Source: Pyrolobus fumarii 1A (GTDB lineage Archaea; Thermoproteota; Thermoprotei_A; Sulfolobales; Pyrodictiaceae). From it: a stretch of 32,000 nucleotides of DNA. The notes under the pieces were generated by a model. It made no database searches. It had not been told where the DNA came from and saw only the letters and a list, made by a program, of their open reading frames with translations. Where the stretch lies: contig NC_015931.1 of NCBI RefSeq assembly GCF_000223395.1, forward strand, positions 1,230,001 to 1,262,000, in the 5' to 3' direction. A program made the translations under genes and the position numbers. Below are positions 3,973 to 21,476 of the stretch, in pieces; within the stretch, counting starts at the first letter, position 1; each line of letters opens with the position of its first letter.

Positions 3973-4326
3973 TTGCCCTTCGCATCGGGGTTTGTGCTAC
4001 TAACGGCAGAGTACAAGGATGAGCCGAAGAGAAGCGAGGTTAAGAAGCACCTGGAGAGTCTGGGGTTCGAGGTTTATGACATAGGCGACCCTTACCGTAT
4101 AGTCTTCTACGTGGAGGTCGACGACCTGGGCGGGTTAGAGCGGATTATAAAGGCTGCCGAGACCCACGAGGGTATCGCGAAGGCGTACATAGTCTATGGC
4201 TTCCTGGGCGACAGTGAGACTAAGAGGAGAATAAACGAGGCTCTCCTGAGTGGAGAGGCTGAGCTAGACGAGTCTACAAGGGAACTTATAGAGTGGATAC
4301 TCTCGAGGCTGAAAGCTCAGGGCTAA
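3973..4326 (+). CDS. Small cytoplasmic protein with a ferredoxin-like beta-alpha-beta-beta-alpha-beta pattern (NapD-like or stand-alone RAM/ACT-like) plus a helical tail
   Basis: 117 aa with no signal peptide. The segment FVLLTAEY...EVKKHLESLGFEVYDIG..YRIVFYVEVDDLGGLERIIKAAETHEGIAKAYIVYG follows the pattern I remember for NapD (and for RAM domains). The start is TTG 3973, with GTG 3991 as an alternative. A TATA-like 'ttgataataa' sits at 3925-3934. The 3' end overlaps the convergent napH-like gene by 4 nt. Confidence 0.5.
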   Translation: MPFASGFVLLTAEYKDEPKRSEVKKHLESLGFEVYDIGDPYRIVFYVEVDDLGGLERIIKAAETHEGIAKAYIVYGFLGDSETKRRINEALLSGEAELDESTRELIEWILSRLKAQG

Positions 4327-5258
4327 GCCTTTCTTCTCTCGTCTCCTCCTCTTGTTCTACGCCGAGGCAGGCCTATTGTAAGGGCTAGTACCCTCTCTGG
4401 ACATACTTCGACGCACCTACCGCACCTGAAGCACCGGTAATCTCTGATATCCTCACCTCTCTTCGCGATATTCGCGACATCTATTGTCATTGGGCACACT
4501 ACGCTACACAATTGGCAGAATGTGCACCTATTACTGGCTACTGTTTTTACGGTCAACAGGCTATACTTGTTCATCACGTGGCCGAATATGTTGCCCGCGG
4601 GGCATATGAACCTACACCATAGCCTCTTTACGCCGAACACTCTCTCAGCAACAATGTTGATCGCGAGCGCCGCTAGCGTTGTGGTGACCCATGCGATTGC
4701 CAGGCTTATTGTCGCCCCGGGCACGTTATACAGTATACCGACTAGCGTCGCAGCTAGCTTCGTGGTACCTGCGATCGGCGATATTGTCGTGAAGAATGGC
4801 TGAGCGAACACTACGCTAAGCAGTAGGAATGCTATCATCGCCGCAACTGGCACCAGCTTCTCTAAACGCCCGGCCTCATGTGGCCTTGCGAATCTCGGGC
4901 TTCTAGGCGTTGCCAGTTTACGCTCGAATATCGAGAATAGCATGTCCATCGGGCAGACCCACCCGCAGAAGAATCTCCCGAGCACACTATAGAGGGTGAA
5001 CACCACGAGAACAGCAATGATAGACTCTAGCGTCGCTTGGTGCGAGGCTACGAGCTGCTCGAGCCACGCGAATATATCGAGCATTGGTATCGTCTTGAGT
5101 ATCCTCGAGGAGGCTAGGCTACCCTCTATTATTGCCCCGTGGAACAACACCTGCGTGGCAAACAGCAACAGCAATGCTACCTGCATAGAGCGTCGTAGTA
5201 GCGTGTACTTGCCTCTAGGCGGCCTGCCTCTCAGGATAGCAAAGAGTTTCCTAACCAT
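4323..5258 (-). CDS. napH: NapH/MauN-type membrane polyferredoxin (quinol dehydrogenase membrane subunit, COG0348)
   Basis: About four TM helices are present, with the two family-typical CxxCP motifs (FFCGWVCPMDMLF and LWCRFICPAGNIFG). The C-terminus carries two CxxCxxCxxxCP ferredoxin motifs (CTFCQLCSVVCP, CFRCGRCVEVCP). I prefer ATG 5258 as the start: it is preceded by gagggtga and lies 11 nt after the napG stop. The track's 5321 start would overlap napG by 53 nt. Confidence 0.8.
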   Translation of the reverse strand: MVRKLFAILRGRPPRGKYTLLRRSMQVALLLLFATQVLFHGAIIEGSLASSRILKTIPMLDIFAWLEQLVASHQATLESIIAVLVVFTLYSVLGRFFCGWVCPMDMLFSIFERKLATPRSPRFARPHEAGRLEKLVPVAAMIAFLLLSVVFAQPFFTTISPIAGTTKLAATLVGILYNVPGATISLAIAWVTTTLAALAINIVAERVFGVKRLWCRFICPAGNIFGHVMNKYSLLTVKTVASNRCTFCQLCSVVCPMTIDVANIAKRGEDIRDYRCFRCGRCVEVCPERVLALTIGLPRRRTRGGDERRKA

Positions 5259-5268
5259 GCTCTCACCC

Positions 5269-6279
5269 TCAACTCTCCTCATTCTCTGTCTCGAGAGTCT
5301 CAACAACTTTCTCGGAGACAATACCCCTAATGTTTATGATATAGTCGCTATTGACTATCATCGCCCTGAACGTCGCCTTTTCAGGATTCTCGCGCTCAGT
5401 ACGAAGTATCAACTCGAGATACTCTTCATAGCTCATACCAGTATTCTTGAAGTTCTTGGCTCTCCTCTCGTACTCCTCCCTAGGCAGAACGTGAATCGCA
5501 CTACCGTTTACCGGGCAGGCCGACACACACTGCCCGCAACCAGTGCACTTCTCTGGCCTCACCCGCGTGTGGACACCCCACTCGTTAAACGTGAACTCGA
5601 AAACCTCGGTGCCGAAGGGACACGCCTTTGCACAGCTGTAGCACTCGCCGCTGTTCCAAGCCCAGCATAGATCCGGGTCTATCATAGCGACGCCCATCCT
5701 AACCTCCTTGGGCTTAACTTCTCTCAATGCACCAGTGGGGCACACAATAGTACACTTCATGCACAGGGTACACGGGTAATGCATAACATCTGGCACTATG
5801 GGCGTCCCTACACGCTCAAGCCCGCCCTCAACGCCAACGAGCCTTATAGCATAGTATCCCTCGTACAGGCAGGCATAGTAGCACAACCCGCAACGTACAC
5901 ATTTTGCATAAAAGTCTTCATCAGCACCTGGCGGTAAAAGCTCAAACCTATCCTCCTCGTAGGGCTTCACGTATGTCATGCACCGGTCGGGAAGCAAAGG
6001 ATTAGCAACACAGATCTTACCGTCACGCTCTATAAGTAGTCCAAGCGACTTGTAATACTCGTACCTTTCCCTATCACGCTCCGCATCAATCTCAAACTCC
6101 ACATAGTATACATTTTCTCCGCTTCTCTCGTTGCCGGCGCCGCGAGTCCCCTCTCCAGCCGCGAAGGAGGATGCCACGCTTCCAATACTAGCTGCTACTA
6201 CACCAGCCCCTACTGCCTTCAGAAACTCTCGACGTGAAAGGCGTGTAACACCACTTTTATCCATTACTCTTACCCCCAC
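5269..6279 (-). CDS. napG: NapG-like Tat-exported four-cluster [4Fe-4S] ferredoxin
   Basis: The N-terminus has a twin-arginine signal (SRREFLKAVGAGVVAAS). Four Cys clusters follow: CVRCGLCYYAC, CTLCMKCTIVCP, C..x7..CYSCAKACP and CTGCGQCVSACP. The gene sits directly upstream of the napH-like gene. Confidence 0.8.
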   Translation of the reverse strand: MGVRVMDKSGVTRLSRREFLKAVGAGVVAASIGSVASSFAAGEGTRGAGNERSGENVYYVEFEIDAERDRERYEYYKSLGLLIERDGKICVANPLLPDRCMTYVKPYEEDRFELLPPGADEDFYAKCVRCGLCYYACLYEGYYAIRLVGVEGGLERVGTPIVPDVMHYPCTLCMKCTIVCPTGALREVKPKEVRMGVAMIDPDLCWAWNSGECYSCAKACPFGTEVFEFTFNEWGVHTRVRPEKCTGCGQCVSACPVNGSAIHVLPREEYERRAKNFKNTGMSYEEYLELILRTERENPEKATFRAMIVNSDYIINIRGIVSEKVVETLETENEES

Positions 6280-6419
6280 ATCGCTTGTTTTTCACGACTC
6301 TCTCAATGTCGAAGGTTGTCTTGAAAACATTTCCCCAGATAGGACAGTAGTTTATCATCGGGAGGAATGTAGATGAGGATAACGAAAAGCAGGAAAGAGA
6401 CCAAAAAGTGTATTTAGTT

Positions 6420-6428
6420 AAAAAAAAA
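6420..6428 (-). terminator. T9 run 25 nt downstream of the NapA-like stop codon (archaeal oligo-T terminator candidate)
   Basis: The plus strand reads A9 at 6420-6428, which is T9 on the coding strand. It lies within a 174-nt spacer between the napA-like and napG-like genes. Confidence 0.4.
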
Positions 6429-6453
6429 GTATGTAGTGTGCGAAACTAACCGG

Positions 6454-9400
6454 TTAGTAGGCTAAGCTGTACTTGGGCTTACCAGTCTGCTCGGCCTCGG
6501 ACTTTGGTATCTCGTCGGGCCTTGCCTTCCTTATCCTCGCTGCACACGTCTTGAAGTCTGGCTGGAAGAAGTACGGCTGCACGTCGTAGTTGTCTAGTGT
6601 TAGCGCGTTGGCTAGCTTGTTCGGATCGAACCATGGCACGAACACGTAGTCGATTCTTGGGCCGCCTAGACCGGTCTTCGGGTCTAGTATGACCGCCTTC
6701 ACGGTCAGCTTACCGCGTGGGCTCTCAATCGTCACCCAGTCGCCCTTCTTGATACCGAGCTTCTCGGCTAGCTCCTTGGGTATCTCGACGTAGGCCTCTG
6801 GCTTCGACTTCATAATCTCTGGCACCTTGCCGGTCATTGTCGCCGTGTGCCAGTGCTCGACAATCCTACCTGTGGTTACCACAAGTGGATACTCCGTCGC
6901 ATCCCTCACAGTGATGACACGCCCGTCCTCAGTCCTGTATCTTAGCGCGAAGCCCGGCACCTCAGCAGGCGCTAACGCAATCTCGAAGAGCGCCTGGATG
7001 TCACCCTTGTACTTCTTTACAGCCTCGCCCCAGCTCATCGTCTCGAGTATCTTTAGCGCCTTCTCTGGGTCGCCGCTGGCTGGGTACGCCTTGTACGTCT
7101 TCACGACAGTGAATGGTCCCTTGGGCGCCGCGAATACCGATATCTTGCCCTGCTTCAATACTAGGTTAGCGTCTAGCTTCATCTCTTGTATTATCACCTC
7201 CTTGTTGATCTTGACCTCGCCAGTCTCATGGTCCATCTTGATTGGTAGCCATGGCCTCGCCCAGATGGTCATCCTACCGGTCGGCTTGGCGTAGAACACC
7301 ACATACCAGCTCTCTGGCACCTTGCTAGCCTTCTTGTACTCGATGTCATCTATCTCCTCTACGATGTGCTTGAGCACCCACTTCATGAGCACTGGGTTCT
7401 TGGCTAGGCTGCCAAGCCACTTGTGCTTGTGTATCGGGTGCACCACGTTCTCGTCGAGGCTCTCTATGTACTTCTGTATCTCCTCGGGGCTGTTCATGTT
7501 CTTAATGTCATTGTATATCTTCTTGATGACGTCTGGGTCGGGCATTAGCGGGTCGTACGGGTAGGAGTACCTGCCGCAGGACTTGTACTTCTCATACCTC
7601 GCTTTGACGCTCGGGTTAGTCGCATACTGCTCTGGCCATGGCCACCTGAAGCCAGCCTCCAGCTTCCTGAATAACTCGCGCTTCACGTAGCTGAAGTCGT
7701 AGTAGGTGTTCTTGGCTAGGCTTAGTATGTCACGGTCCCATATCCTAGTGACGAACTCCTGGTGCCACTTCTTGTCACGGCTCTTCTCCACGATGTACTG
7801 GACCCAGCTCTTGCCTGCAGCCTTGGCCGCCTTGTCGACATCCTCTGGGAAGAAGCCGCTCACAAGACCCTTCGCAATTATACCCTCGTCTTCAAGCGCC
7901 TTACCGACCATCGCGAAGATTATGTGGTCAGCTACGGCCTCGCCCGGCGGTGTTATCAGGTACCTTGCTACGCTGTAGCGCCTCTCGCTACAACCGTACT
8001 TGAACTCCTTCTCGGACCAGGCCGCCGCCGGGAGTATCAGGTCTGCGACATCGGTGGTCCTTGTTGGGTAGATGTCGCTCACTATAACGAATGGGAACGC
8101 GGGATCATCGTCGTGCGGCTTTACCATACCAAGCCTGAACTTGTATACATTTGGTAGGCTGTGACCTGGGTTCGTCTCAGCGATCCACACTACCTTGATG
8201 ATACCCGCGCCAATCCTGCGGAATAGCTCAACAGCGTGTGGACCCGGAACCGGGTGCACATATACCTTCTCGATCTCCTTTTTGATCTGCTCTGGCGAGT
8301 AGCCACGCTCCTTTAGGTATTCCTCGGTGAGCTTCCTCCAGATCTTCTCCACCTGCTCCCTTGCTGCCTTCTTGGCGATCAGCCTACCGTATGGCAGGAC
8401 GTGAGCCAGGCCACCCTGGTCTCTAATGCCGCCACAGGCGTTCGGCTGACCAGTCAAGCTCCAAGTGCCGGAACCATACTTGCCAATCTTGCCTGTGAGC
8501 GCTAGTAGGTTGATTATGCTGTTAACAGCGTGCACACCCTGTATCTTCTGGTTGATGCCCATAGTCCAGAAGACTAGGATCCTGCCCCTCGCTATCCACT
8601 TCGCAGCAAGCCTAAGCGCCTCTACCGGGTCGATCTCAATGAATGGCGTGTCCTCCATCTTCACCTTGTCTGGGCTCAACTCGCCAGCCTTGATCAGCTT
8701 CTCAGCAGTCTCCTTGTTGATGAGTGGCTTCTGGTCGCCGAAGAGTATCTTAGCCATAACCTCCGGCTTGTAGAACTCAAGGAACTTGAGGTATAGCGCG
8801 AATCCTCTCCACCAGTCCTTCTCTATCTCCTCCTCACTCGTGTACTTCTTACCGATGCTCGGGTACACCTTGTAGTTGGCAGCGTTGCTGGCAGTGGTAC
8901 CCATGTCCCAGACCTTATTCAAGTCGCCAAGGTTGTTCAGCGGTGTGTTGTAATCCTTGAGTGCCCAGGTCTTCGCGGTCTCAACGGGTATCGCGAAGTC
9001 CGCGTGCCTCTTGAGCCACTTTAGGTCGATGTACTCGCCCTTGCACTCAACCTTACCCTCCTTGACGTCAATCACCTTACACTTGTCTAGCTCGAACGCC
9101 ACTATGTGGGCGAGCGTGTGGAGAAGCGCAACGTCCATACTCCAACGGATTGGCAGCCATAGGTCGGCAATGGTACCGCTCCTGGTCTTCCTGGGGTCAG
9201 CTAGTATCACCTTGGCATTCGGGTTTTTCTTCTTCACCTCAGAGATGCGGCCGAAGAGTATTGGATGCGCCTCAGCAGTATTGCTACCGATTATCATGAA
9301 TGTATCTGCATGCACGCCCAGATCGGGCTCCGGCACGTCTATGTAGTCGTAGCTTACCTCAGGCTCATCAGCACCAAAGCTGGATATGTAACCGCCAACG

Positions 9401-10206
9401 GCGCTAACCATACAGAGCCTTGGGTTACCGTCGAGGTTGTTGGTGTGTATACCGCCCTTAGTCAGCTTGTTGATAACGTAGCTCTCCTCGGTGCCAAGCT
9501 GACCACTTCCATAGTAGGCGAAGCTGTGTGGACCATACTTGTTCAGAGCATACTTTAGCACCGCGGTTAGGAACTTGATCGCGGTGTCCCAGTCGATCTC
9601 GACGAAGTTCTCCTTGACGTGCTCCTCTACGGTCTTGGTTGCATCTAGGTTCTTGCTTACCTGGCGCTTCTTGACCCTAGGCGCCTCGGGTATCTCCTCG
9701 GGGGTTATTGGTGGCCTGTTCTTACCTGGGATTATCCAGTCCTTGTTGACTAGAGGTTTCTTGAAGCGTAGCTCCATAGCCCTCTTGTTACCGCCGTAGC
9801 CTAGAGCCTTGTGGATGTAGAAGGCCTTGACGCAGAGGGCACCCCTGTTAACCGGGTAGTTCGGGTCGCCGATAACCGCGAGAATGTCCTTAGCCATGCC
9901 AGTAGCCGGGTCCATTACTACCTGGAGCTTCACGCCACAACCAGTACCGCAGTACCTGCAGGGACCGAGCAGAAGGGTGGATATCTTCGGCCTGGCGGTT
10001 GTCGTCGCGGTCTCTGTTGGAGTTGCACCCACGGTTGTCGTGATAGTCTTAGTCTGGGTTAGAACCTCTGTAAGTGTGGTCGTTACAGTCTCGACGATTT
10101 TCTCCTTGCGACCGGTCATATAGTAGGTCGCGGCTCCGCCCACAGCTGCTAGCGCGGCACCAAGGGCAATTGCTTTTAGAATATCACGACGCGTTTGGTC
10201 GGGCAA
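6454..10206 (-). CDS. napA: NapA-like (periplasmic-nitrate-reductase-type) Mo/W-bis-pyranopterin oxidoreductase catalytic subunit; Tat signal/anchor, Thr-rich linker, unusually long at 1250 aa
   Basis: A twin-arginine motif is present (TRRDILKAIALGAALAAV). The [4Fe-4S] motif CRYCGTGCG (9934-9960) is followed by ...CVKAF. The motif GNPRLCMVSAVGGYISSFGADEP contains a Cys (codon 9412-9414) at the NapA Mo-ligand position. Other NapA-like segments are IIGSNTAEAHPILFGRI, SLTGQPNACGG, EHWHTATMTGKVPE and FVPWFDPNKLANALTLD. All resemble NapA signatures as I remember them. The start is TTG 10206, preceded by aggaggggt. Confidence 0.85.
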   Translation of the reverse strand: MPDQTRRDILKAIALGAALAAVGGAATYYMTGRKEKIVETVTTTLTEVLTQTKTITTTVGATPTETATTTARPKISTLLLGPCRYCGTGCGVKLQVVMDPATGMAKDILAVIGDPNYPVNRGALCVKAFYIHKALGYGGNKRAMELRFKKPLVNKDWIIPGKNRPPITPEEIPEAPRVKKRQVSKNLDATKTVEEHVKENFVEIDWDTAIKFLTAVLKYALNKYGPHSFAYYGSGQLGTEESYVINKLTKGGIHTNNLDGNPRLCMVSAVGGYISSFGADEPEVSYDYIDVPEPDLGVHADTFMIIGSNTAEAHPILFGRISEVKKKNPNAKVILADPRKTRSGTIADLWLPIRWSMDVALLHTLAHIVAFELDKCKVIDVKEGKVECKGEYIDLKWLKRHADFAIPVETAKTWALKDYNTPLNNLGDLNKVWDMGTTASNAANYKVYPSIGKKYTSEEEIEKDWWRGFALYLKFLEFYKPEVMAKILFGDQKPLINKETAEKLIKAGELSPDKVKMEDTPFIEIDPVEALRLAAKWIARGRILVFWTMGINQKIQGVHAVNSIINLLALTGKIGKYGSGTWSLTGQPNACGGIRDQGGLAHVLPYGRLIAKKAAREQVEKIWRKLTEEYLKERGYSPEQIKKEIEKVYVHPVPGPHAVELFRRIGAGIIKVVWIAETNPGHSLPNVYKFRLGMVKPHDDDPAFPFVIVSDIYPTRTTDVADLILPAAAWSEKEFKYGCSERRYSVARYLITPPGEAVADHIIFAMVGKALEDEGIIAKGLVSGFFPEDVDKAAKAAGKSWVQYIVEKSRDKKWHQEFVTRIWDRDILSLAKNTYYDFSYVKRELFRKLEAGFRWPWPEQYATNPSVKARYEKYKSCGRYSYPYDPLMPDPDVIKKIYNDIKNMNSPEEIQKYIESLDENVVHPIHKHKWLGSLAKNPVLMKWVLKHIVEEIDDIEYKKASKVPESWYVVFYAKPTGRMTIWARPWLPIKMDHETGEVKINKEVIIQEMKLDANLVLKQGKISVFAAPKGPFTVVKTYKAYPASGDPEKALKILETMSWGEAVKKYKGDIQALFEIALAPAEVPGFALRYRTEDGRVITVRDATEYPLVVTTGRIVEHWHTATMTGKVPEIMKSKPEAYVEIPKELAEKLGIKKGDWVTIESPRGKLTVKAVILDPKTGLGGPRIDYVFVPWFDPNKLANALTLDNYDVQPYFFQPDFKTCAARIRKARPDEIPKSEAEQTGKPKYSLAY

Positions 10207-11486: not shown

Positions 11487-12170
11487 TTACTTACGAGATA
11501 CTGCTAGATACCCGCCAGCACCTATCACGAACAATAGAGCAGCGATAGCAATTGCCAGTGTTACATCATGCTTTACTACCTCGCCCTTGGTGACTACCGT
11601 CGTTGTCGGCTTGGTCGTTGTCACTAGAGTGGTTGTCACGATTGTCGTGGTGGTTACCTTTGGTTCGACAGTGATCTCCTTGAAGCCGTAATAGTCGCCA
11701 ACGACGCTAGCGCTACCATCAGCCGCTAGAACAGCTATCTTGAAGGTCACTGGCACTGGTTTTTCAGGGGCTTTCCACTCGAATGTCCACTCGCGCTTAG
11801 TGGCACCCTGCGCGGTGTGAGTCAACATCCTGCCATCTGGCGTCTCGGAAACTTGAGTCGTATCATCGACAGGCTTTAGTTCGCCAGCATTCACCAGGAC
11901 TGCAAAGCCGCCACAATAGGCGCCTTCGGGGCACTTGGGCCCTTTCGTTATCTTTATCGTTATCTTGTAGACTTTACCGGGTTCGTATTTGCTGGGCAAA
12001 CCGGTGACAGTAAACTCGGCAGTTCCCGCTGGCTGGTGACACTGGTTACATTCTAGTCTTGGGGCGCCGCTGCTCATCGCGCCAACATGCACTGCAACTA
12101 GGCCGACAACTACTAGTACAGCCACCAGGGCAGTCAATAATGCGTACTTCTTCAACATCAATATGCTCAC
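11487..12170 (-). CDS. Monohaem c-type cytochrome with a beta-rich (DOMON/reeler-like?) domain, a Thr-rich stalk and a C-terminal TM anchor
   Basis: An N-terminal signal/TM segment is followed by a single CNQCH haem-c motif (12036-12050). A ~120-aa beta-strand-patterned domain follows (FTVTGLP..YKITIKIT..GGFAVLV..WTFEWKAP..FKIAVLAADG). Next is the linker KVTTTTIVTTTLVTTTKPTTTVVT (11586-11657). The protein ends with the TM LAIAIAALLFVIGAGGYLAV and the tail SRK. Confidence 0.75.
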   Translation of the reverse strand: MSILMLKKYALLTALVAVLVVVGLVAVHVGAMSSGAPRLECNQCHQPAGTAEFTVTGLPSKYEPGKVYKITIKITKGPKCPEGAYCGGFAVLVNAGELKPVDDTTQVSETPDGRMLTHTAQGATKREWTFEWKAPEKPVPVTFKIAVLAADGSASVVGDYYGFKEITVEPKVTTTTIVTTTLVTTTKPTTTVVTKGEVVKHDVTLAIAIAALLFVIGAGGYLAVSRK

Positions 12171-12468
12171 TCCTCCAATGCGAGGCTCAGTGGCATAGAT
12201 CAGACAAAATTAGTATTATGCCTCAAATCTTCGGATATTTTTTACTTTTTCCTTTGGTTTTGATAGTCATCATAATATCTGCATGATTAACGACAATTAA
12301 GCATACCATCACCTTTCTAGCCAATTGTGGTGAAGCGAGCCACTACGATAGATTTGCAATATTCTTTAGCTATACATTATTGTTGTTAACATCCGAGTCC
12401 GAAAAATTATGGTTGAAGATATAACTGGATGCGTCACGCCGCCCGCCTTATGGAATAGTGGGGTGACC

Positions 12469-14988
12469 ATGAGTATGAGCCGTGTTGTAACTCTTGTTTT
12501 CGTTGTATCGATCCTAGCACTTCTAGCGGTCAGCGCTACGGCAGCCGCAGCAACCGTACCCTTCGGTGACGAGGTAGTCAAGAAGGTAGATGAACTGCTT
12601 AAGAGCGACATTGTCAGCCCACAGACCAAGGCGTGTATCCAGTGCCACCTGTCAGTCACCCCGATGATCGTCTACGAGTGGGCTATGAGCAAACACGCTC
12701 AGATGACACCAGCTCAGGTTGCCGAGCTGTACAAGAAGCTTGGCGAGCCTCAGTGGGCTAACATGATTGCCGAGAAGTTCAAGAACTACAAGTACGTCGT
12801 CGGCTGCTACGAGTGTCACGGCATGTTCGCCGACACCGACAGACCCGATGCCGTCGAGCACATACCTGGCGTCAAGATCGTCGCAGTTGTGACTAGGAAG
12901 GACTGTGGTCAGTGCCACCCGAAGGAAAACATTGAGATCAGCTGGACCTGGCACGCCACTGCTGCATTCGCACCTATCAAGCCATGGTACACTGCCATAA
13001 TCAAGTACGCTGTGAGCGAGGGCGCGAACCCGTTTGGCGATGAGAATGCAAAGGCGCTCTACGAGAAGTACCTGCCACCATTCCTAACCAAGCAGCGCGA
13101 CAAGGAGCCAGTCTACTGGAACTTCTACAAGGAGATTGCAAAGGCCGTAATGGAGTACATGATGACCGGCAAGGAGAACGACATAGTGAAGATGCTCAAG
13201 GAGGCCACCGGCATGGTAACGCCGTACGACCTTGACTGGAAGAAGTGGATTAGCCCACTATGGCCAGCTAGCGGCGTCCTCAACAACACTATCCTCGGCA
13301 AGCTAGGCATTAAGATAACCATTGCCGCGATGGACGGCACTGTCGCAACTGTGAGCAACGTGATGTCCCACCCAACCTTCCGCAACGCCTATGTCTATCA
13401 CGCATGTCTAGAGTGCCACGGCGCTGCCGTGATACCCTATGGTTATGCTGAGGACCCAACCTACAAGGTGAAGATAGTCAAGCTATGGGGCTGGCCGAAC
13501 AACGGTGCTGGCCGTATCGACCCGGACGGTAGCATTGGCACCTGCACTGCATGCCACCCACGCCACATGTTCAGCGTGAAGCAGGCTAGGGAGCCATGGA
13601 CCTGTGGCCAGTGCCACCTAGGCTACGACCACCCACACATCGAGATTTACGAGGAGAGCAAGCATGGTAACATCTACGACGCTTATGGCGAGGAGTGGAA
13701 CTGGGAGCAGATACCGTGGAGGCCGGGCATTGACTTCAACGCGCCAACCTGCGCAACCTGCCACATGAGTGCGCTAGCCGACAAGGATGGCAACATTATC
13801 GTGCCAGGCACTCACGACCTAGTGAAGAGGCTAGTATGGGACCAGATGCACTTCTTCAGTCACCCGAAGCCAGTGATACCAGACAACTTCCAGACTGCCA
13901 CCTTCCTCAAGTTCAGCATGCTGAAGGGCAAGTACCCAGAGGATGTAATGAAGGCATATGAGCAGACCGGCAGGTATCCGGTCTTCATGGGTCTAAAGAT
14001 CGTTGACGAGTGTCAGCCGGGCCAGGTGTGCTTCCCAAGGCTACCGAAGGTCGAGCTTACCGGCGAGCTAGCCAAGCACCGTGAGGAGATGAAGAAGGTC
14101 TGTAGGTTCTGCCATGCAAGCCAGTGGGTCGACAACTACTTCAGAACCGCCGACCAGAACATAATCGAGTACGACATTGTCGCCAGGTTCGCGTTTAGCC
14201 TACTACAGCTAGCATGGGCCGAGGGCATCCACGACAAGAAGAACCTGCTAGACGAGTACATGGAGATCATGTGGTACTACATCTGGCACCACGACGGTAG
14301 GAGGTGGAGGAACGGCGCCACCATGATGGGTCCAGACTATGCACACTGGCTTGGCATCGTTGACACTGTGATGGACAAGCTCGGCAGGATGATAAACTAC
14401 CTAGCAACCGCACTCAAGGTCAAGAAGCTCGAGACCGAGCTAGCTGCCCTCAAGCAGCAGGCTGCTGGCGCGCCATACGCGCCAGAGCTGGTCGAGAAGA
14501 TTGCAAAGCTAGAGAGGATGATAGAGGAGCTGAAGAGCAAGCTAGCAGCCCTAGAGGCGCAGGTGCCGACCCTAAAGGCTAAGCTAACCGAGCTATCCAG
14601 CGACGTGTCTGCACTTGAGAGCGACTACACGAGCTTCAAAGGCGATGTGAGCGAGATCGTGAAGAGAGTTGAGGAGCTTAGCAAGCAGCTAGAGACCATT
14701 GCACCCGAGGCTAAGAAGATAACCGAGCTTGTCAGTCAGGTCAAGGACATTGTCGCCAAGCTAGAGACTCTCAACAAGAAGGTTGAGGAGGTGAGCGGCA
14801 AGGTCGAGAAGATGGGCGAGGAGGTGGGCACCGTCAAGTCCAAGGTTGAGAAGGTCAGCGAGGAGGTAAGCAGCGTCACCGAGCAGCTAGGTGCCGTGAG
14901 CGCCAACAGCTACACGCTAGCCGGCATCGCACTAGCAGTAGCTGCTATCGCACTAGGCCTAGCGGTTATACGAGGCAGAGGAGCCTAA
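12469..14988 (+). CDS. Octahaem c-type cytochrome of the hydroxylamine oxidoreductase (HAO) family, fused to a long coiled-coil stalk and a C-terminal TM anchor (paralog 1)
   Basis: Eight CxxCH motifs are present: CIQCH, CYECH, CGQCH, CLECH, CTACH, CGQCH, CATCH, CRFCH. There is an HAO-family block, WGWPNNGAGRIDPDGSIGTCTACHPRHMFSVKQAREPWTCGQCHLGYDHPHIEIYEESKHGN. The signal peptide is MSMSRVVTLVFVVSILALLAVSATAAAA. I prefer ATG 12469 as the start because ggggtga precedes it; the track start is 12409. A coiled coil spans ~14410-14904 and a TM helix spans 14911-14970. Confidence 0.85.
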   Translation: MSMSRVVTLVFVVSILALLAVSATAAAATVPFGDEVVKKVDELLKSDIVSPQTKACIQCHLSVTPMIVYEWAMSKHAQMTPAQVAELYKKLGEPQWANMIAEKFKNYKYVVGCYECHGMFADTDRPDAVEHIPGVKIVAVVTRKDCGQCHPKENIEISWTWHATAAFAPIKPWYTAIIKYAVSEGANPFGDENAKALYEKYLPPFLTKQRDKEPVYWNFYKEIAKAVMEYMMTGKENDIVKMLKEATGMVTPYDLDWKKWISPLWPASGVLNNTILGKLGIKITIAAMDGTVATVSNVMSHPTFRNAYVYHACLECHGAAVIPYGYAEDPTYKVKIVKLWGWPNNGAGRIDPDGSIGTCTACHPRHMFSVKQAREPWTCGQCHLGYDHPHIEIYEESKHGNIYDAYGEEWNWEQIPWRPGIDFNAPTCATCHMSALADKDGNIIVPGTHDLVKRLVWDQMHFFSHPKPVIPDNFQTATFLKFSMLKGKYPEDVMKAYEQTGRYPVFMGLKIVDECQPGQVCFPRLPKVELTGELAKHREEMKKVCRFCHASQWVDNYFRTADQNIIEYDIVARFAFSLLQLAWAEGIHDKKNLLDEYMEIMWYYIWHHDGRRWRNGATMMGPDYAHWLGIVDTVMDKLGRMINYLATALKVKKLETELAALKQQAAGAPYAPELVEKIAKLERMIEELKSKLAALEAQVPTLKAKLTELSSDVSALESDYTSFKGDVSEIVKRVEELSKQLETIAPEAKKITELVSQVKDIVAKLETLNKKVEEVSGKVEKMGEEVGTVKSKVEKVSEEVSSVTEQLGAVSANSYTLAGIALAVAAIALGLAVIRGRGA
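14779..14904 (+). repeat. Six consecutive 21-nt (heptad) imperfect repeats inside the stalk-coding region
   Basis: The repeats translate as KVEEVSG/KVEKMGE/EVGTVKS/KVEKVSE/EVSSVTE/QLGAVSA. Hydrophobic residues (V/L) sit at fixed heptad positions. The DNA shows the matching 21-nt periodicity (aaggttgaggaggtgagcggc / aaggtcgagaagatgggcgag ...). Confidence 0.6.
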
Positions 14989-15063: not shown

Positions 15064-16629
15064 ATGCGTATCCTCTATTCTCATCTTTTTACCATCCTTC
15101 TCATACTGGTATTCACGCAGTATGCTTTTGCGTCTCTGATATCGAACTATCCGGGTCAACCCATAGCGTATGAACTCGTGATCAACTTTACACACGCCTC
15201 AGAATCACAAGAGTGGCGCGTTCACATTGAACTTGTAGGATACAACGCAAATTTCACGTGTTCATCGTCTCTGAAGCCTAACCCGCTCTACATGCAGACT
15301 AGGAGTATCTCCCCTCGACTAATCGCCACGTCGTTATACTATGTGCTTGACAGCGTGTGCCCAAAAGTGATAGATGTTTTGAAGAGCGCGAAAAACGGCT
15401 TACTGGAGCTTGTGATGACAGCACCCAAAGACTATGTTGTAAGGAGCGCGCTAGACTGGCGGGGTTACGGGGCACCCGGCGGGCCATACCTACTACCGGT
15501 CACCCTTTTCAAGAGGTACTACATGTATGACGGCATTGTGGTCGCCTATACTAGGGTCTACGAGACGATCGACAATCCGTCGTTGAACCTGAGTATAGTT
15601 CTGCCGAGAGGGTTTAACACTGCACAGCTTGATGCTGTTGTCGAGACTGTAACCGCAGTTAGAAACGGGCTGAGCAGGTGGCTTGGCCCCAGTCCTAGGA
15701 GCCCCGTTGTAATCGTGATCGCTTCGCCAGAGGAGAGTGACTACATGCCTCCCGGTACCGCGCATAGTACAGGAGCCATGCTCTACATAAAACCTGACAT
15801 TGATGTCGACCTGGCTGGTCTAATCCATGCTGTTGCGCATGAATCTGCTCATGGTTGGTTCAACTTTGGGCTATTGTACGGCGACTTTGGGTTCCAAGAG
15901 GGTCTTGCAGAGTTCCTTGCGTTGAACGCGCTCCGTGTATATGCGCCAAGGTTGTTCGGGATAGCAGAACGCTATGTGTTATTCTCGTTGAAGAGCGACG
16001 ATAGGTACGCGACGTGGCTCAAGGTTCATGCTGCCATATGGTACTCTGTGATATACGCGTGCAACGAGAGTTTATACACAGATCTCTTACGTGGTTTGTT
16101 CCGCCAGGCTCTCGCGGAGAACGGCAAGTACGTTACATTGTTCGATTTGATTAACTCCCTTGTGGCACACGCACCACAATATTGTAGACAGAGGCTCAGG
16201 TCTCTGTTAGGCCCTACTCTACTATCCGCTGCCGAGGGTAGTAGCAGCTGGCCGTTCGTGAACACTACTGTGATAGAGGATGCCCTTAGGCTGCTCAACA
16301 GTCCAGTTTCTTCAAACTTCACCGTTAACGGGACGTGTAGAGGACAGCCGCTAGAGGAGCCACCAGCGAGGATTAGCCATACACGCACAGGTGTCAATGA
16401 AATGCCACGCGAAAAAGTTACCCTCAACAGCACCTCAACCGAGAAGAGCGTTACACACGCCCCACAATCGCCTACTCGCACACAGAACGTTGAGAGGGGC
16501 GGACCAGCTGGCAGTTTCTCATTAGAGCCTAGCAGTTCTCTTTACGGGCAAATACCATATCTCGCGCTACTAGCTTTTATAGCGGTGTTTAGCATTTTTG
16601 CGTTTCGTGCGAGAATAAACCGTGAATGA
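15064..16629 (+). CDS. Membrane-anchored extracellular gluzincin (M1-like, peptidase clan MA) zinc metalloprotease, N-glycosylation-sequon rich
   Basis: An N-terminal signal/TM segment is present. The motif HAVAHESAHGWFNFGLLYGDFGFQEGLAEF contains HExxH (15838-15852) followed by a downstream QEGLA. This resembles the M1 HExxHx18E / NEGFA arrangement, but the spacing is 3 residues shorter. There are many NxS/T sequons. The C-terminal TM is IPYLALLAFIAVFSIFAF, with the tail RARINRE. Confidence 0.65.
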   Translation: MRILYSHLFTILLILVFTQYAFASLISNYPGQPIAYELVINFTHASESQEWRVHIELVGYNANFTCSSSLKPNPLYMQTRSISPRLIATSLYYVLDSVCPKVIDVLKSAKNGLLELVMTAPKDYVVRSALDWRGYGAPGGPYLLPVTLFKRYYMYDGIVVAYTRVYETIDNPSLNLSIVLPRGFNTAQLDAVVETVTAVRNGLSRWLGPSPRSPVVIVIASPEESDYMPPGTAHSTGAMLYIKPDIDVDLAGLIHAVAHESAHGWFNFGLLYGDFGFQEGLAEFLALNALRVYAPRLFGIAERYVLFSLKSDDRYATWLKVHAAIWYSVIYACNESLYTDLLRGLFRQALAENGKYVTLFDLINSLVAHAPQYCRQRLRSLLGPTLLSAAEGSSSWPFVNTTVIEDALRLLNSPVSSNFTVNGTCRGQPLEEPPARISHTRTGVNEMPREKVTLNSTSTEKSVTHAPQSPTRTQNVERGGPAGSFSLEPSSSLYGQIPYLALLAFIAVFSIFAFRARINRE

Positions 16630-16693: not shown

Positions 16694-17572
16694 ATGTCGT
16701 ACACTACTTCTAAGCCACTGGTAGCATATTACGTTTGTAAGTTTAGGTGTCCCCTTTTCACGCTCACCCGCGAGGCATACACCTTAGCAATGAATACTCC
16801 GTTCTCCGAGGATGCCTGTTTTAATGGCGCGTTCTCCAGTTTGGCTATTCGCATCCTCAGGGTTAACATATCCGTGAACGATGGGTTCACAGAAATCTGG
16901 GCGAGAGTTAGTGGCAAAAAGCAGTTTGTCGAGAGCTATGTAAAGGCGCTTACAAAGGCTAAGGGCATTTACTTTCAACTGATATATGCTAACAGCTTTG
17001 GAAGGATATTGCGCATTCTAGTGCCGAGAGAGTATTGTAAGAATTGCATCGCTAGCCTGGGAGGCGACAACGGGTGGTGCTGCTGTCCTCTACTCTCTGC
17101 CCCAGTAGGGTCAATGGCCAAGACGACAATCATAACTCCCTGCGGCGCGGTATACGAGCTTGTGGTGTCGAAGAGAAGTGTGCTAGAGAAGCTCGAGAAA
17201 ACATGTTGGGACTGCGAGCTCATACTAACACATGCTGTCGACGAGTACGACTATATGCTGACTGAGAAGCAGGAAAGGATTCTCATCGAAGCCTATTTGC
17301 GCGGCTATTTCAGCTTCCCCCGCAAGATTAGCATGAAGGACCTTGCTAAGGAGCTTGGCATGAGCGTCTCGTCGCTAGCCGAACTCCTTAGGAAGGCTGA
17401 GGCTAAGGTGGTTGAAGCGTTTGTTAGACACGAGCTGCCGCATTATCTAGTCGAGCATATAATCAGGAGAGGATCTGAGACTAGCGACATTGTAGGTAAA
17501 CACGCTAGGCGCACACCCAAGGATACTCACAAAGCCGTTGAAGAGGATCGGGCTATACTGGTCAGGAAGTAA
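16694..17572 (+). CDS. Transcriptional regulator with an N-terminal Cys-rich sensor-like domain and a C-terminal HTH_10 (Bat/DmsR/NarO-type) DNA-binding domain
   Basis: The C-terminal segment LTEKQERILIEAYLRGYFSFPRKISMKDLAKELGMSVSSLAELLRKAEAKVVEAF is the classic bacterio-opsin-activator-type HTH. The N-terminal ~190 aa hold clustered cysteines: CKFRCP, CKNC, WCCCP, CWDC. Confidence 0.75.
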   Translation: MSYTTSKPLVAYYVCKFRCPLFTLTREAYTLAMNTPFSEDACFNGAFSSLAIRILRVNISVNDGFTEIWARVSGKKQFVESYVKALTKAKGIYFQLIYANSFGRILRILVPREYCKNCIASLGGDNGWCCCPLLSAPVGSMAKTTIITPCGAVYELVVSKRSVLEKLEKTCWDCELILTHAVDEYDYMLTEKQERILIEAYLRGYFSFPRKISMKDLAKELGMSVSSLAELLRKAEAKVVEAFVRHELPHYLVEHIIRRGSETSDIVGKHARRTPKDTHKAVEEDRAILVRK

Positions 17573-17584
17573 ACACGGCCTCGA

Positions 17585-17608
17585 TTTTTCGAAAAAAGCT
17601 CTATATAT
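17585..17608 (+). promoter_or_regulatory. Perfect 12-nt palindrome TTTTTCGAAAAA (possible terminator or operator) followed by a TATA-like ctatatat
   Basis: The palindrome at 17585-17596 starts 13 nt after the regulator stop; its T5 run could terminate transcription. The 'ctatatat' at 17601-17608 is a plausible TATA box for the 12-TM gene (start 17701). Confidence 0.3.
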
Positions 17609-17700
17609 CCGCACTAACACTGCCCTTGCTGTCTTGATTACGCGTGTAGTACCTGTGTTGTAGTGCATGTTGTTCCCGATTAAACTGCCGCGCTGGTTCT

Positions 17701-19101
17701 GTGTGGCTCTGGGCGTTGATTGTGACGAGGGGCCGCATAGTCAAGATTCACGTTATTGTTGCATACACATTGGTCGCCCTGGTGTTGCTATGGGGTGTCT
17801 TGCTCTCCCCGCCATTTAGAGAGCTTCGTGTAGCGCTTGGGTTTCCTGCTGAGTTGCCCGGCTCGAGGTTTAACGGATGGGCTGCTGAGATTATAGCAAG
17901 TGATATAGAAGATGCGAGTTTTTACCTTGCAAGGGTTTCTCACTATTATCACGTTGTGTTTGCCGCTCTACTCTACGCGTCTCTAGTTCTCAGCGCCGGT
18001 GTACTCGGGGACCGCATACCTCTGAACACGCTGACCTTGGCTCTAGTCGGTGCTTTGATGACGGCGGTTGGTGGTATTGGTTACGCGTATTTTGCCAGGT
18101 TGTTCTATCTTCACGGTTTATTCATAGCTGGGCTCGCGTTTCTCTTCGCGGCTGGCGTGCTTGTCGCACAGAGTCTCTGGAAACCGCGAAGTGAGATTGA
18201 GATCGGGTTGTTTGCTTCTGTACTCTTGTTGCTTATTGGCGGTGTCGTGGGCGGGTATGTTGGAAGTAGCTACATGGACGATAGCCTCGCAGATGCGTTT
18301 GTGAAGGCGAAGATAGCATCCAGGTTCGATCCGGATCTTGGCGAGCACGTGGAAGTTTGGAGAGCCATGACGGGCCACGCGCATGCAATGGTTACACTTG
18401 TTCTCACCGGCTCTATGCTCGTTGGGTTTGCAGCTACCGGGCCGCGGTGGGCTAGGCCGAGATTGGCGAAGCTCAGCCTCTGGGCCGTAACGCTCTCCCT
18501 GGCTGCGACTGCTGTAGGCTCCTATCTTGTCTGGCCTTTAGGCGGCATCGCACACAAGATAATCACACCATCTAGTCTGGTGCTGCTCATTGCCAGTCTT
18601 CTAGCGGCTTTTGCTCTTAGAGCGCCCCCGCCGATGACCGCTGATGGCGCATTGGTACACGGGTTACGTGTAGGTCTGGTCTCAATGTGGCCTCTTGTGG
18701 TGGTGCCAGGGGCTATCGTCGCTGTTAGCCTACACAAGCCCGTCTTCTTTGACCCGCCTATGCGTGACCCCTCCCGCGACTGGGCCGAGCTAGCCTACAG
18801 TATCGGCCATTGGCATATACTACTAGCAGCATGGGGTGTTACACTGCTAATCACTCTGCTAGCTAGCATAGGTAGGAGTAGGCTAGCCGTACTGTCAGCA
18901 TGGCTGGCTGTAGTTGGCTTCCTGGTGGCTAGCGCAGGGGTAAACCTCTACGCTCTCACAGCGCCGCCGGGGGCCTATAGCCCCAACCCTTACGATAATC
19001 TCTGGGTTCGTCTCCTCATAGAGCCGGGATTGACAATCATGGCCTTGGCAGCGATACTTGGGTATGTCGAGGCTCTACGCTGGGCACTCAACAAGCAATG
19101 A
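17701..19101 (+). CDS. Uncharacterised polytopic membrane protein (~12 TM) with paired histidine motifs in TM helices
   Basis: I count twelve hydrophobic stretches by eye. The His pairs are HYYH (aa 81-84, start of TM2), GHAHAM (aa 225-230, start of TM6) and GHWH (aa 369-372, codons 18808-18816, TM10). Single His residues occur at 138, 285, 320 and 345. The start is GTG. I recognise no family. Confidence 0.7.
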   Translation: MWLWALIVTRGRIVKIHVIVAYTLVALVLLWGVLLSPPFRELRVALGFPAELPGSRFNGWAAEIIASDIEDASFYLARVSHYYHVVFAALLYASLVLSAGVLGDRIPLNTLTLALVGALMTAVGGIGYAYFARLFYLHGLFIAGLAFLFAAGVLVAQSLWKPRSEIEIGLFASVLLLLIGGVVGGYVGSSYMDDSLADAFVKAKIASRFDPDLGEHVEVWRAMTGHAHAMVTLVLTGSMLVGFAATGPRWARPRLAKLSLWAVTLSLAATAVGSYLVWPLGGIAHKIITPSSLVLLIASLLAAFALRAPPPMTADGALVHGLRVGLVSMWPLVVVPGAIVAVSLHKPVFFDPPMRDPSRDWAELAYSIGHWHILLAAWGVTLLITLLASIGRSRLAVLSAWLAVVGFLVASAGVNLYALTAPPGAYSPNPYDNLWVRLLIEPGLTIMALAAILGYVEALRWALNKQ

Positions 19102-19239: not shown

Positions 19240-19515
19240 CTACTCTCCTAGTATCTCCTTTACCTCCTGCCTGCCCCTTTCCAGTTCCCTAGCCTGCTCC
19301 GGATCCACCTGTAGGAGGAGATGTAGGAACTCGCCAACGTGCGTTTTCTCCTCACGCGCTATATCCAGGAAGACTCTCCTTATACCCTCATCCTCTATCT
19401 GGGACGCCAATTCTTCATAGAGGTTTATTGCCTCAAGCTCCGCAATTATGGCGGTTCTCAATGCCTGCGCAACCGTCATTTTATGCTCATGCTGCTCGAC
19501 TTGTTTCTGAGTCAA
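19240..19515 (-). CDS. Small two-helix ferritin-like protein (EncFtn/rubrerythrin-like half-ferritin)
   Basis: ALRTAIIAELEAINLYEELA ... FLDIAREEKTHVGEFLHLLLQVDP shows the helix-1 Glu plus helix-2 ExxH di-iron pattern. It resembles encapsulated-ferritin sequences as I remember them. The track start is TTG 19515; ATG 19479 (MTVAQAL...) is an alternative. Confidence 0.65.
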   Translation of the reverse strand: MTQKQVEQHEHKMTVAQALRTAIIAELEAINLYEELASQIEDEGIRRVFLDIAREEKTHVGEFLHLLLQVDPEQARELERGRQEVKEILGE

Positions 19516-19802: not shown

Positions 19803-21476
19803 GTGTTGAAGGGTATGGAAGCAAGGCAAATTCTCGTGTTTGCTATTGTCGCGGTAATCGTTGCCGCCGCAGCATACTTCGCTGGCTATAGCGCTGCCCC
19901 GACAAAGACAGTGACATCCACGGTGGAGTCGGTAGCTACTTTGACAGTGACGAAAACGCAAATGCTTACAGAGACTTACTCGGAGATCCGCACGGTGACA
20001 GTGACTACAACACATACGGTTGTAAAGCGAGTCGGCTTCATGCCAAAACAGATAAACGTCCAGGAGGAGGTCAAGAAGATTATGAATAAGCTATCGCCGC
20101 AGAGCAGGGCGTGCGTAAACTGCCACATGAGATACACTCCCGGCATAGTCGCCGACTGGCTGATGAGCAAGCACGCGCGTGTAACGCCAGCCGAGGCCTG
20201 GAAGAAGCCGGAGCTTCAGCGTGAGATATCCGCCCTACCACCGGAGAACATGAGGGATTACATCGTCGGCTGTTACGAGTGCCACGGCCTAAACCCGGAC
20301 AAGCACCCAGATACCTTCGAGCACTTTGGCTTTAAGATCCACACTATAGTGACGCCGCCGGATTGCGCCGTCTGTCACCCCGTGGAGGTCGAGGAGTACG
20401 GCAGGAGCGTGAAGGCACACGCTCACAACAACCTGGTGAAGAACCCGGTGTACATGCTGCTCGTCAACGCCTCAACACAGATAAACATGTTTGGCATCAA
20501 GGCGGGCTACCATCTGGCTGTTGAGAGCGCCTGCTTCGCCTGCCACGGTGCGAAGGTAGAGTTCGTCGGCCTGAAGGAGATCCAGGTGGGCAATCTCAAG
20601 CTAAAGGTGCCAGTCTACAAGGGCTGGCCGAACCACGGTGTGGGCAGAGTAAACCCGGATGGCAGCGAGGGCTCTTGTACAGCATGCCACCCGAGACACG
20701 CCTTTAGCATCGAGGTTGCACGCAGCCCATACACCTGCTCCCAGTGCCACCTAGACCCAGACGTCCCAGCCTTCGACGTCTGGAAGGAGAGCAAGCACGG
20801 CAACATATTCCTAGCACAGTGGAAGACTTACAACATGACTGCTGTGCCATGGGTGCCTGGCAGAGACTTCCGCGCGCCATCCTGCGCGGTCTGCCACTTC
20901 TCGCTACTAGTCGATAAGAATGGCAACGTGATAGCTCCCAGGACGCACGACGTAGGCTCAAGGATATGGATTAGGCTCTTCGGCGTCTATGCGCACCCGC
21001 AGCCGAAGATTGGCGAGACGTGGAAGATTAAGAACAAGGATGGTCTGCCGCTCCCATACTCGCTGCTGGACGCCGAGCCAGCCTGGGACTATGTGATCAG
21101 CAAGGAGGAGATGGCGAAGAGACGCGAGCAGATGATAAAGATTTGTAGTGCGTGCCACTCGGAGAACTACGCTAGAGAGAGGATAGCGTGGTTCGAGGGC
21201 GTTGTCAACGAGACTAACAAGGCGATACTGGCGTCCACCCAGCTACTCGTAGAGGCATGGAAGAAGGGTGTCGCCAAGGGCCTGCTGACCGGCGACAACC
21301 CGTTCGACGAGTACATCGAGAGACTGTGGATAGAGACTTGGCTATTCTACGCTAACAGCATCAGATATGGCGCCGCGATGAACGGCCCAGACTGGACGAC
21401 GTTCAAGAGAGGCTGGTACCAGCTAACCAGGACGCTCGGCGAGATGCAGATGCTAATAGAGCTGCACGGAAAGTAA
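19803..21476 (+). CDS. Octahaem c-type cytochrome of the HAO family with an N-terminal TM anchor and Thr-rich linker (paralog 2)
   Basis: Eight CxxCH motifs are present: CVNCH, CYECH, CAVCH, CFACH, CTACH, CSQCH, CAVCH, CSACH. The HAO block is YKGWPNHGVGRVNPDGSEGSCTACHPRHAFSIEVARSPYTCSQCHLDPDVPAFDVWKESKHGN. The anchor is ILVFAIVAVIVAAAAYFAGY and the Thr/Val linker spans 19899-20018. The start is GTG 19803 or ATG 19815. Confidence 0.85.
   Translation: MLKGMEARQILVFAIVAVIVAAAAYFAGYSAAPTKTVTSTVESVATLTVTKTQMLTETYSEIRTVTVTTTHTVVKRVGFMPKQINVQEEVKKIMNKLSPQSRACVNCHMRYTPGIVADWLMSKHARVTPAEAWKKPELQREISALPPENMRDYIVGCYECHGLNPDKHPDTFEHFGFKIHTIVTPPDCAVCHPVEVEEYGRSVKAHAHNNLVKNPVYMLLVNASTQINMFGIKAGYHLAVESACFACHGAKVEFVGLKEIQVGNLKLKVPVYKGWPNHGVGRVNPDGSEGSCTACHPRHAFSIEVARSPYTCSQCHLDPDVPAFDVWKESKHGNIFLAQWKTYNMTAVPWVPGRDFRAPSCAVCHFSLLVDKNGNVIAPRTHDVGSRIWIRLFGVYAHPQPKIGETWKIKNKDGLPLPYSLLDAEPAWDYVISKEEMAKRREQMIKICSACHSENYARERIAWFEGVVNETNKAILASTQLLVEAWKKGVAKGLLTGDNPFDEYIERLWIETWLFYANSIRYGAAMNGPDWTTFKRGWYQLTRTLGEMQMLIELHGK

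Follow-up and report, generated by a model that had tools for sequence, protein, structure and literature searches.

A twelve-helix archaeal membrane protein family with three related modules and a predicted fold like that of haem-copper oxidase subunit I

What kind of protein is encoded at positions 17701..19101 of a 32,000-nucleotide stretch of the Pyrolobus fumarii 1A genome (contig NC_015931.1, positions 1,230,001 to 1,262,000; the whole stretch is referred to as the window), where a gene for a membrane protein with 12 transmembrane (TM) helices lies among genes like those of hydroxylamine oxidoreductase (HAO) and of the nitrate reductase Nap? An earlier note on this DNA had placed the gene in an "N-oxide island" beside an HAO paralog, had proposed on this ground a quinol-oxidising or NO-handling membrane component and had recognised no family for it. 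Here, we describe its product as a member of a previously undescribed family that is predicted to adopt the 12-TM, pseudo-threefold fold of subunit I of haem-copper oxidases (HCOs) and that appears to be built from three mutually homologous four-helix modules. We regard the protein as a probable haem-metal redox enzyme of a new kind, and not as a partner of the neighbouring HAO-like genes. The gene itself reads:

17701..19101, forward strand: coding sequence of the 12-TM protein, 466 amino acids from the GTG at 17701; the database start is the GTG at 17722, which gives 459 amino acids

The database entry from Pyrolobus fumarii is 100% identical to this protein, with a start seven codons later than the GTG at 17701. 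Its sequence contains 12 histidines but no Cys, and no CxxCH motif was found in it.

The earlier note's statement that the sequence matches no recognised family held: the protein had no match among Pfam, NCBIfam or PDB sequences even at E<=10. A family profile run against PDB sequences with hmmsearch found no oxidase; malonyl-CoA synthetase and a poxin, the sole PDB sequence matches (E 0.5-2), were dismissed as chance. Nevertheless, the protein has relatives. A sequence search of 5.8 billion proteins returned 60 homologues, all annotated as "hypothetical", from sources that include Pyrodictium, Archaeoglobus, Methanodesulfokora/Korarchaeota and metagenome-assembled genomes of Thermoproteota; these close homologues (about 60) all come from hyperthermophilic archaea. 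When 1.84 billion cluster representatives were searched with a profile, the family grew to 89 proteins in total, some only 19-26% identical, and scanning a single genome for each GTDB species located 42 loci, all archaeal and mainly of hydrothermal lineages. No description of the family was found in the literature library that was searched, and no curated Pfam or NCBIfam model covers it.

Conservation was counted in an 86-sequence alignment of 64 close homologues and 22 distant full-length relatives. Seven histidines (H84, H138, H226, H228, H285, H370 and H372) are invariant in the close set (64/64) and kept in 19-21 of the 22 distant sequences, so that the conservation of these residues is real and non-random. 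The set of histidines put forward in the earlier note thus needs amending at two points: H81, the first His of its HYYH motif, is present in just 35 of the 64 close homologues, and H138 and H285 had been missed. Besides, M230 is found in all 64 close and in 15 of 22 distant sequences, which turns the TM6 motif into HxHxM, while the residue between the two TM6 histidines is a Glu (E227) in 32 of the 64 close members. Further strongly conserved positions are R78, Y83, Y130, G144, G337, R355 and E363.

An AlphaFold2 model, computed with the family alignment as input (pLDDT 89.6, pTM 0.92), contains 12 long helices together with short loop helices. It agrees with the earlier note in the number of TM helices and in the placement of the three histidine motifs. 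The helices that carry invariant histidines are the following:

Residues 69-105: TM2, with HYYH (81-84) and H84
Residues 135-158: TM4, with H138 at the helix start
Residues 218-245: TM6, with TGHAHAM (224-230), H226 and H228
Residues 277-304: TM8, with H285
Residues 357-390: TM10, with IGHWHILLAAWG (368-379), which includes GHWH, and with H370 and H372

In the model, every invariant histidine lies within the first third of its own helix, at the long-loop side of the protein. This His-bearing side is probably the outer membrane face; a positive-inside count of Lys and Arg (7.2 on the presumed inner versus 9.3 on the outer side) was dominated by the long outer loops and did not decide the orientation. 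When the model was compared with the PDB using Foldseek, ranks 1-17 were taken exclusively by HCO subunit I (prob 1.00, query-normalised TM score 0.44-0.60, identity 12-16%), namely by the bovine and yeast enzymes, the aa3 oxidases of R. sphaeroides and P. denitrificans, E. coli bo3, B. subtilis aa3-600 and caa3. From rank 18 onward, prob was <=0.25 and the TM score <0.2, and a chain of complex III appeared only at rank 41 (prob 0.08). On the basis of this model, we conclude that the protein adopts the 12-TM three-arc (pseudo-threefold) fold of HCO subunit I.

The predicted threefold arrangement is mirrored within the protein sequence, which divides into three modules of four helices each:

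17701..18186, forward strand: module 1, residues 1-162, TM1-4, with R78, Y83, H84 (17950-17952) and H138 (18112-18114)
18187..18624, forward strand: module 2, residues 163-308, TM5-8, with H226 (18376-18378), H228 (18382-18384) and M230 (18388-18390) in TM6 and H285 (18553-18555) in TM8
18625..19098, forward strand: module 3, residues 309-466, TM9-12, with R355, E363, H370 (18808-18810) and H372 (18814-18816)

Comparison of the modules with hhalign, after the family alignment had been split accordingly, matched modules 2 and 3 at E=9e-8 (probability 94%), modules 1 and 3 at E=2.9e-5 (74%) and modules 1 and 2 at E=6.8e-5 (63%). In controls, reversed templates scored 13.6-14.2 and column shuffles <=17.3, bar two aberrant outputs; the latter, seen in 2 of 60 shuffles and scoring ~135 on just 17-28 columns near the end of the template, were taken as numerical artefacts. 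The histidines superpose between modules, with H84 equivalent to H228 and H372, H226 to H370, and H138 to H285. Module 2 additionally has a conserved outer loop (R208/P211/W220/R221). Judged by these profile comparisons, the three four-helix modules are homologous to each other.

We then asked how the conserved residues map onto HCOs, using an alignment of eight A-type sequences (E. coli CyoB plus seven plasmid-borne genes of the CtaD/QoxB/CyoB type; a 50-kb stretch of pSymA, looked through for NorB or FixN, contained no HCO). Against CyoB alone, hhalign paired the SIGHWH segment of the family with LIAHFH; against the HCO alignment, TM6-TM12 aligned locally and in register with helices VI-XII (E=0.007). 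H370 and H372 of the GHWH motif thereby land exactly on CyoB H419 and H421 (AHFH), the ligands of haem o3 and haem b. H285 lies 2-3 residues off the CuB pair H333/H334 of CyoB in the hhalign alignment, and ungapped extension brings G225-H226 within one residue of CyoB G283-H284, which holds the CuB His of GHPEVY. Taken by itself, module 3 (TM9-12) matched helices IX-XII at E=2e-4, with a score of 30.9; the highest of 50 column shuffles reached 17.0, and the reversed template 13.9. A second whole-protein match between the family and the HCO alignment was displaced by exactly one module, which is what the threefold module symmetry predicts. Homology to HCOs is not established by the sequence evidence alone; its value is that its register agrees with that of the independent structural match. 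The earlier note had called a likeness to helices of HCOs and NorB superficial. The likeness is indeed there, yet it goes deeper than that, since it extends to a match at the level of the fold and to the placement of GHWH on the HxH of helix X.

HCO subunit I (PF00115; e.g. CyoB, 7cub_A, and bovine COX1) is thus the sole confident structural match of the family, with which it shares the 12-TM core, the coincidence of the TM10 HxH with the helix-X haem ligands, and histidines in TM6 and at the TM7/8 junction that approximate the ligand regions of helices VI and VII; the TM2 histidine may correspond to that of helix II. In contrast to HCO subunit I, the family carries two histidines and a Met in TM6 (HxHxM) as well as an extra invariant His in TM4, appears to lack the Tyr of the His-Tyr cross-link and the Arg pair of loop XI-XII, and is accompanied by no conserved subunit II or III. 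It also differs from the tested HCO alignment in that sequence homology among its three modules can still be recognised: the same three-way split of the A-type alignment gave no inter-module signal (E 0.04-0.49), albeit with only eight sequences and so with less power.

Support for a haem enzyme came from the distant relatives, which are bacterial as judged by their neighbours (a FadL-type outer-membrane protein, spore germination genes). Three of them (P0094, P0092 and P0099) are encoded in or near operons with UbiA-family genes. At locus L057, the gene order is Crp/Fnr regulator, relative, FGE-sulfatase-type protein and UbiA-family gene; at L062, a divergent Crp/Fnr regulator is followed by the relative and the UbiA-family gene; and at L060/L061, the relative carries a fused FGE-type domain, has the UbiA-family gene 3.7 kb upstream of it and is followed by a NapH-like (ferredoxin) gene. 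The haem O synthase model TIGR01473 gave by far the highest scores for all three UbiA genes, at 196, 177 and 211 bits against a cutoff of 210.3. As the same linkage occurs in the cyoABCDE oxidase operon, it represents independent support for a haem enzyme. Both Crp/Fnr regulators near the distant relatives lack the Fnr Cys cluster. As to the fusions, the FGE-sulfatase-type domain of P0099 (L060, 8001-10358) follows an extra TM helix, and P0111 carries a fused PD40 beta-propeller, a propeller type that is encoded by a separate downstream gene at L065 (1343-2503).

Based on these data, we propose that the family shares its fold, and very probably its ancestry, with subunit I of the superfamily of HCOs and nitric oxide (NO) reductases. 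The three homologous four-helix modules would pack into a 12-helix core, with the invariant histidines placed on TM2, TM6 and TM10 and on TM4 and TM8. By analogy with HCOs, H84 (TM2) and H372 (TM10) would sandwich a low-spin haem, and H370, on the opposite face of TM10, would hold a second haem. Beside the latter, a non-haem metal (Cu or Fe) could be held by H226, H228 and M230 of TM6 together with H285 of TM8, while H138 may serve as a seventh ligand or as a second-sphere residue. The electron donor would most likely be a membrane quinol, as for bo3, since no conserved cupredoxin or cytochrome c partner adjoins the gene; over the 47 loci at which neighbourhoods were counted, no cupredoxin or cytochrome c subunit II partner was found. 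As for the chemistry, small-oxide reduction (NO or O2) in detoxification or auxiliary respiration would be the likeliest, judging from what enzymes with this fold do, from the Nap/HAO setting in Pyrodictiaceae and from the Crp/Fnr and HTH_10 regulators. In P. fumarii, the substrate would be NO leaking from the adjacent Nap/HAO-like pathway from nitrate to ammonium.

Such an activity invites comparison with the NO reductases, including the quinol-dependent qNOR, an enzyme of ~750-800 amino acids that has an N-terminal extension and matches PF00115. The family resembles these enzymes in that one membrane subunit would do the catalysis with no cupredoxin beside it, in residing within a nitrate/nitrite-reducing island in P. 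fumarii and two relatives, and possibly in the Glu between the TM6 histidines of half of its members and the invariant E363. However, the FeB ligand pattern of NO reductases (H, HH, E) is not reproduced.

Several observations weigh against assigning the family to the HCO type. At the level of sequence, the hhalign probabilities between the family and HCOs are low (5-46%), and at E<=10 the COX1 profile (PF00115) had no match in the target or in 29 members of the family. At the putative active site, the HH pair of HCO helix VII is replaced by a single His (H285, at the TM7/8 junction); no Tyr stands at +4 from H226 or H228, as M230 occupies the former position and position 232 is mostly Ala; and the Arg pair of HCO loop XI-XII, which binds propionate, has no aligned counterpart. 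A global profile alignment places H84 six residues off the helix-II ligand H106 of CyoB; the depth of H84 in TM2 (15 residues) equals that of H372 in TM10. The top 50 Foldseek matches held oxidases of the A family only, with none of NorB, ba3 and cbb3 among them. The linkage with haem O synthase is confined to one bacterial clade, being absent from the distant relatives P0077, P0078, P0085 and P0093, and neither haem O synthase nor FGE-type genes were found in the window or at the archaeal loci. Finally, many of the host organisms are strict anaerobes without known denitrification. Because the family lacks two defining features of HCOs, namely the profile match and the helix-VII HH pair, we describe it as a variant and do not file it as an HCO member. 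Overall, we give an even chance to the reading that the protein is a divergent, single-subunit, HCO-like haem/metal oxidoreductase of an undescribed family, perhaps reducing NO or O2.

The genomic setting bears on the alternatives. In the window, the surroundings of the gene comprise:

4323-10206: NapA/NapG/NapH-like genes, further upstream
12409-14988, forward strand: HAO-like paralog 1, with 8 CxxCH motifs and a long coiled-coil tail
16694-17572, forward strand: transcription regulator matching the HTH_10 profile, directly upstream
17593..17612, forward strand: A-rich/TATA-like element aaaaaagctctatatatccg, seen by eye only, in the 128-bp gap 5' of the coding sequence
19240-19515, reverse strand: ferritin-like (EncFtn/rubrerythrin-type) open reading frame of 91 amino acids, convergent with the gene (EncB_fam, 77 bits; cutoff 90)
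19803-21476: HAO-like gene (HAO paralog 2) with 8 CxxCH motifs, downstream past the ferritin-like reading frame

The earlier note had located the gene between the regulator and HAO paralog 2. Both do flank it on the respective sides, although the ferritin-like reading frame on the opposite strand separates it from the latter. Because of this opposite-strand gene and of the 128-bp gap with the TATA-like element, which is a possible promoter of its own, the gene probably forms its own transcription unit.

The proposed functional tie to HAO did not withstand comparison across genomes: an HAO-like neighbour was present at 1 of the 47 loci, i.e. in the P. fumarii window only. Nap neighbours occurred at three Pyrodictiaceae-type loci (the window, L005 and L048), and at L005 and L048 the homologue is divergent from, and adjacent to, NapGH. 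HTH_10 regulators flank the homologues at 8 of the 47 loci, and a ferritin-like reading frame is nearby at 4, the window included; the other three (L044, 4480-4764; L049, 5397-5705; L050, 3894-4223) lie a few kb from the homologues, in phylogenetically distant archaeal loci. Genes for ABC transporters recur as well, with an ATPase at 14 loci and a 12TM_1 permease at 9. The commonest neighbour, found at 24 of the 46 loci over which it was counted, is a membrane protein of ~200 amino acids and seven TM helices that is encoded directly upstream on the same strand, often overlapping and translationally coupled. The idea that it is an analogue of HCO subunit II or III was set aside, since its AlphaFold2 model, a 7-TM bundle (pLDDT 93.5) with only generic matches to G-protein-coupled receptors and rhodopsins (TM score 0.35-0.54), is uninformative. 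This protein has no Pfam or NCBIfam match. The window lacks it, as do Pyrodictiaceae in general, no member from Pyrolobus or Pyrodictium having been found. Examples are encoded at L001 (9395-9994), L003 (7406-7999) and 22 further loci, with conserved LHSxSGLI, GGLxISxGGxALA and LHPLLFLSA motifs, and Korarchaeum cryptofilum has a member of this 7-TM family too.

These counts affect the idea, first raised in the earlier note, that the protein is a multi-haem b electron-transfer or quinol-dehydrogenase module, devoid of a catalytic metal site, that passes electrons from quinol to periplasmic partners such as the HAO-like cytochromes or Nap. The seven histidines, which are spread over three symmetric modules, could accommodate two or three haems with bis-His ligation (e.g. 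H84+H372, H370+H228 and H226+H138/H285). The lack of a conserved catalytic-type partner would fit this idea, as would the location of the window gene between two 8-haem HAO-like genes and near NapGH, and the NapH-like ferredoxin gene downstream of the fused relative at L060. Still, we consider it unlikely, given that HAO adjoins the gene at 1 and Nap at 3-4 of the 47 loci and that the histidines all sit at similar depth near one membrane face, which leaves no transmembrane haem pair. Known proteins of this fold, moreover, use it for a binuclear catalytic site, and the invariant HxHxM together with E363 resembles a metal site more than plain haem ligation. Nor did the more specific assignments that had been suggested find support: NnrS (PF05940) had no match at E<=10 in 29 members, there was no Pfam or NCBIfam match of the family to NrfD/PsrC, cytochrome b or quinol dehydrogenases of the NapC/NrfH type, and Foldseek likewise gave no confident fold match to the latter three.

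Alternatively, the linkage of haem O synthase, directly downstream of the relatives at L057 and L062 and nearby at L060, could reflect a protein that modifies or handles haem, analogous to CtaA/Cox15 and acting on haem O. CtaA likewise consists of repeated four-helix units with histidines in their second and fourth helices and is usually encoded near ctaB. Yet CtaA has 8 TM helices in two bundles, as opposed to 12 in the HCO arrangement; the COX15-CtaA profile (PF02628) matched none of 29 members at E<=10; and no CtaA structure featured in the Foldseek top 50, compared with TM scores of up to 0.60 for HCO subunit I. Since the cyo operon has the oxidase itself beside haem O synthase and the archaeal members lack such a neighbour, a role in haem handling seems improbable to us.

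Although the HxHxM motif, the many histidines and the absence of Cys, the FGE-sulfatase-type or PD40 beta-propeller periplasmic domains fused or adjacent to some relatives, and the recurrent ABC transporter and ferritin-like neighbours might suit a non-haem metal (Cu/Fe/Zn) membrane protein, be it a transporter, a sensor or a monooxygenase-like enzyme, that reuses the 12-helix scaffold, we deem this very doubtful in view of the HxH exactly on the helix-X haem-ligand pair, the haem O synthase linkage of the bacterial relatives, the conserved Arg at the His side as expected for propionate binding, and the lack of any transporter fold among the confident Foldseek matches.

Returning to the reading of an HCO-like oxidoreductase, its evolutionary implications deserve mention. 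HCOs and NO reductases stand at the heart of aerobic respiration and of denitrification, and their origin has long been debated, both as to whether the reduction of NO or of O2 came first and as to how the 12-helix subunit arose. We tentatively entertain the possibility, which we think less than probable, that the family branched off early from the HCO/NO reductase lineage and has survived as a quinol-fed single-subunit haem/metal enzyme with a differently built active site, in whose sequence the triplication of an ancestral His-bearing unit of four helices can still be read. Were this true, anaerobic hyperthermophilic archaea would possess an NO/O2 reductase of a new class, respiratory or detoxifying in role and with bacterial cousins, and the family would offer direct sequence evidence on the origin of the HCO fold. 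The active site would be unlike those of all known HCO families, with HxHxM in helix VI, one His at helix VII/VIII and a further one in helix IV. With the fold and the helix-X haem ligands of HCOs, a rearranged metal site and a three-module repeat that can still be detected, the family would supply a new outgroup for HCOs and a concrete test of the triplication idea. Besides, vent archaea (Pyrodictiaceae, Archaeoglobi, Korarchaeia, Geoarchaeota and others) would gain a redox enzyme that has so far gone unrecognised in their metabolism and that is invisible to current annotation. For P. fumarii, the picture of the "N-oxide island" is corrected in that the gene is not a dedicated partner of HAO.

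Some features of the neighbouring genes in the window are of interest in their own right. The HTH_10 regulator (16694-17572) starts with a domain of ~185 amino acids that contains 11 Cys (CKFRC, CKNC, WCCC, CWDC) and has no Pfam match; this Cys-rich domain may be a metal- or redox-sensing one. The HTH_10 regulators beside the korarchaeal homologues are far shorter (189 amino acids). The ferritin-like reading frame has no encapsulin shell gene alongside. In HAO paralog 1, the C-terminal ~200 residues form a coiled coil, with many coiled-coil profile matches at 670-835 and an S-layer SlaB-like match at 761-853, so that the extension looks as if it were a stalk carrying the cytochrome. Between this gene and the regulator, the forward-strand reading frame at 15064-16629 encodes 521 amino acids without a Pfam or NCBIfam match; from its N-terminal signal-like segment, C-terminal TM helix and HESAH (HExxH) motif, the product may be a surface-anchored zinc metalloprotease. 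The NapA-like molybdoenzyme (6454-10206, reverse strand) comprises 1250 amino acids versus the 830 positions of the bacterial NapA models that it matched; genes at L005 and L048 encode proteins that share 74% identity with it from end to end, so that the long form is kept in Pyrodictiaceae-type genomes. Adjoining the Nap cluster, a choice-of-anchor V/Reeler-domain protein with one CxxCH is encoded at 11487-12170 on the reverse strand, and a 51% identical gene lies beside NapA at L048 (818-1546).

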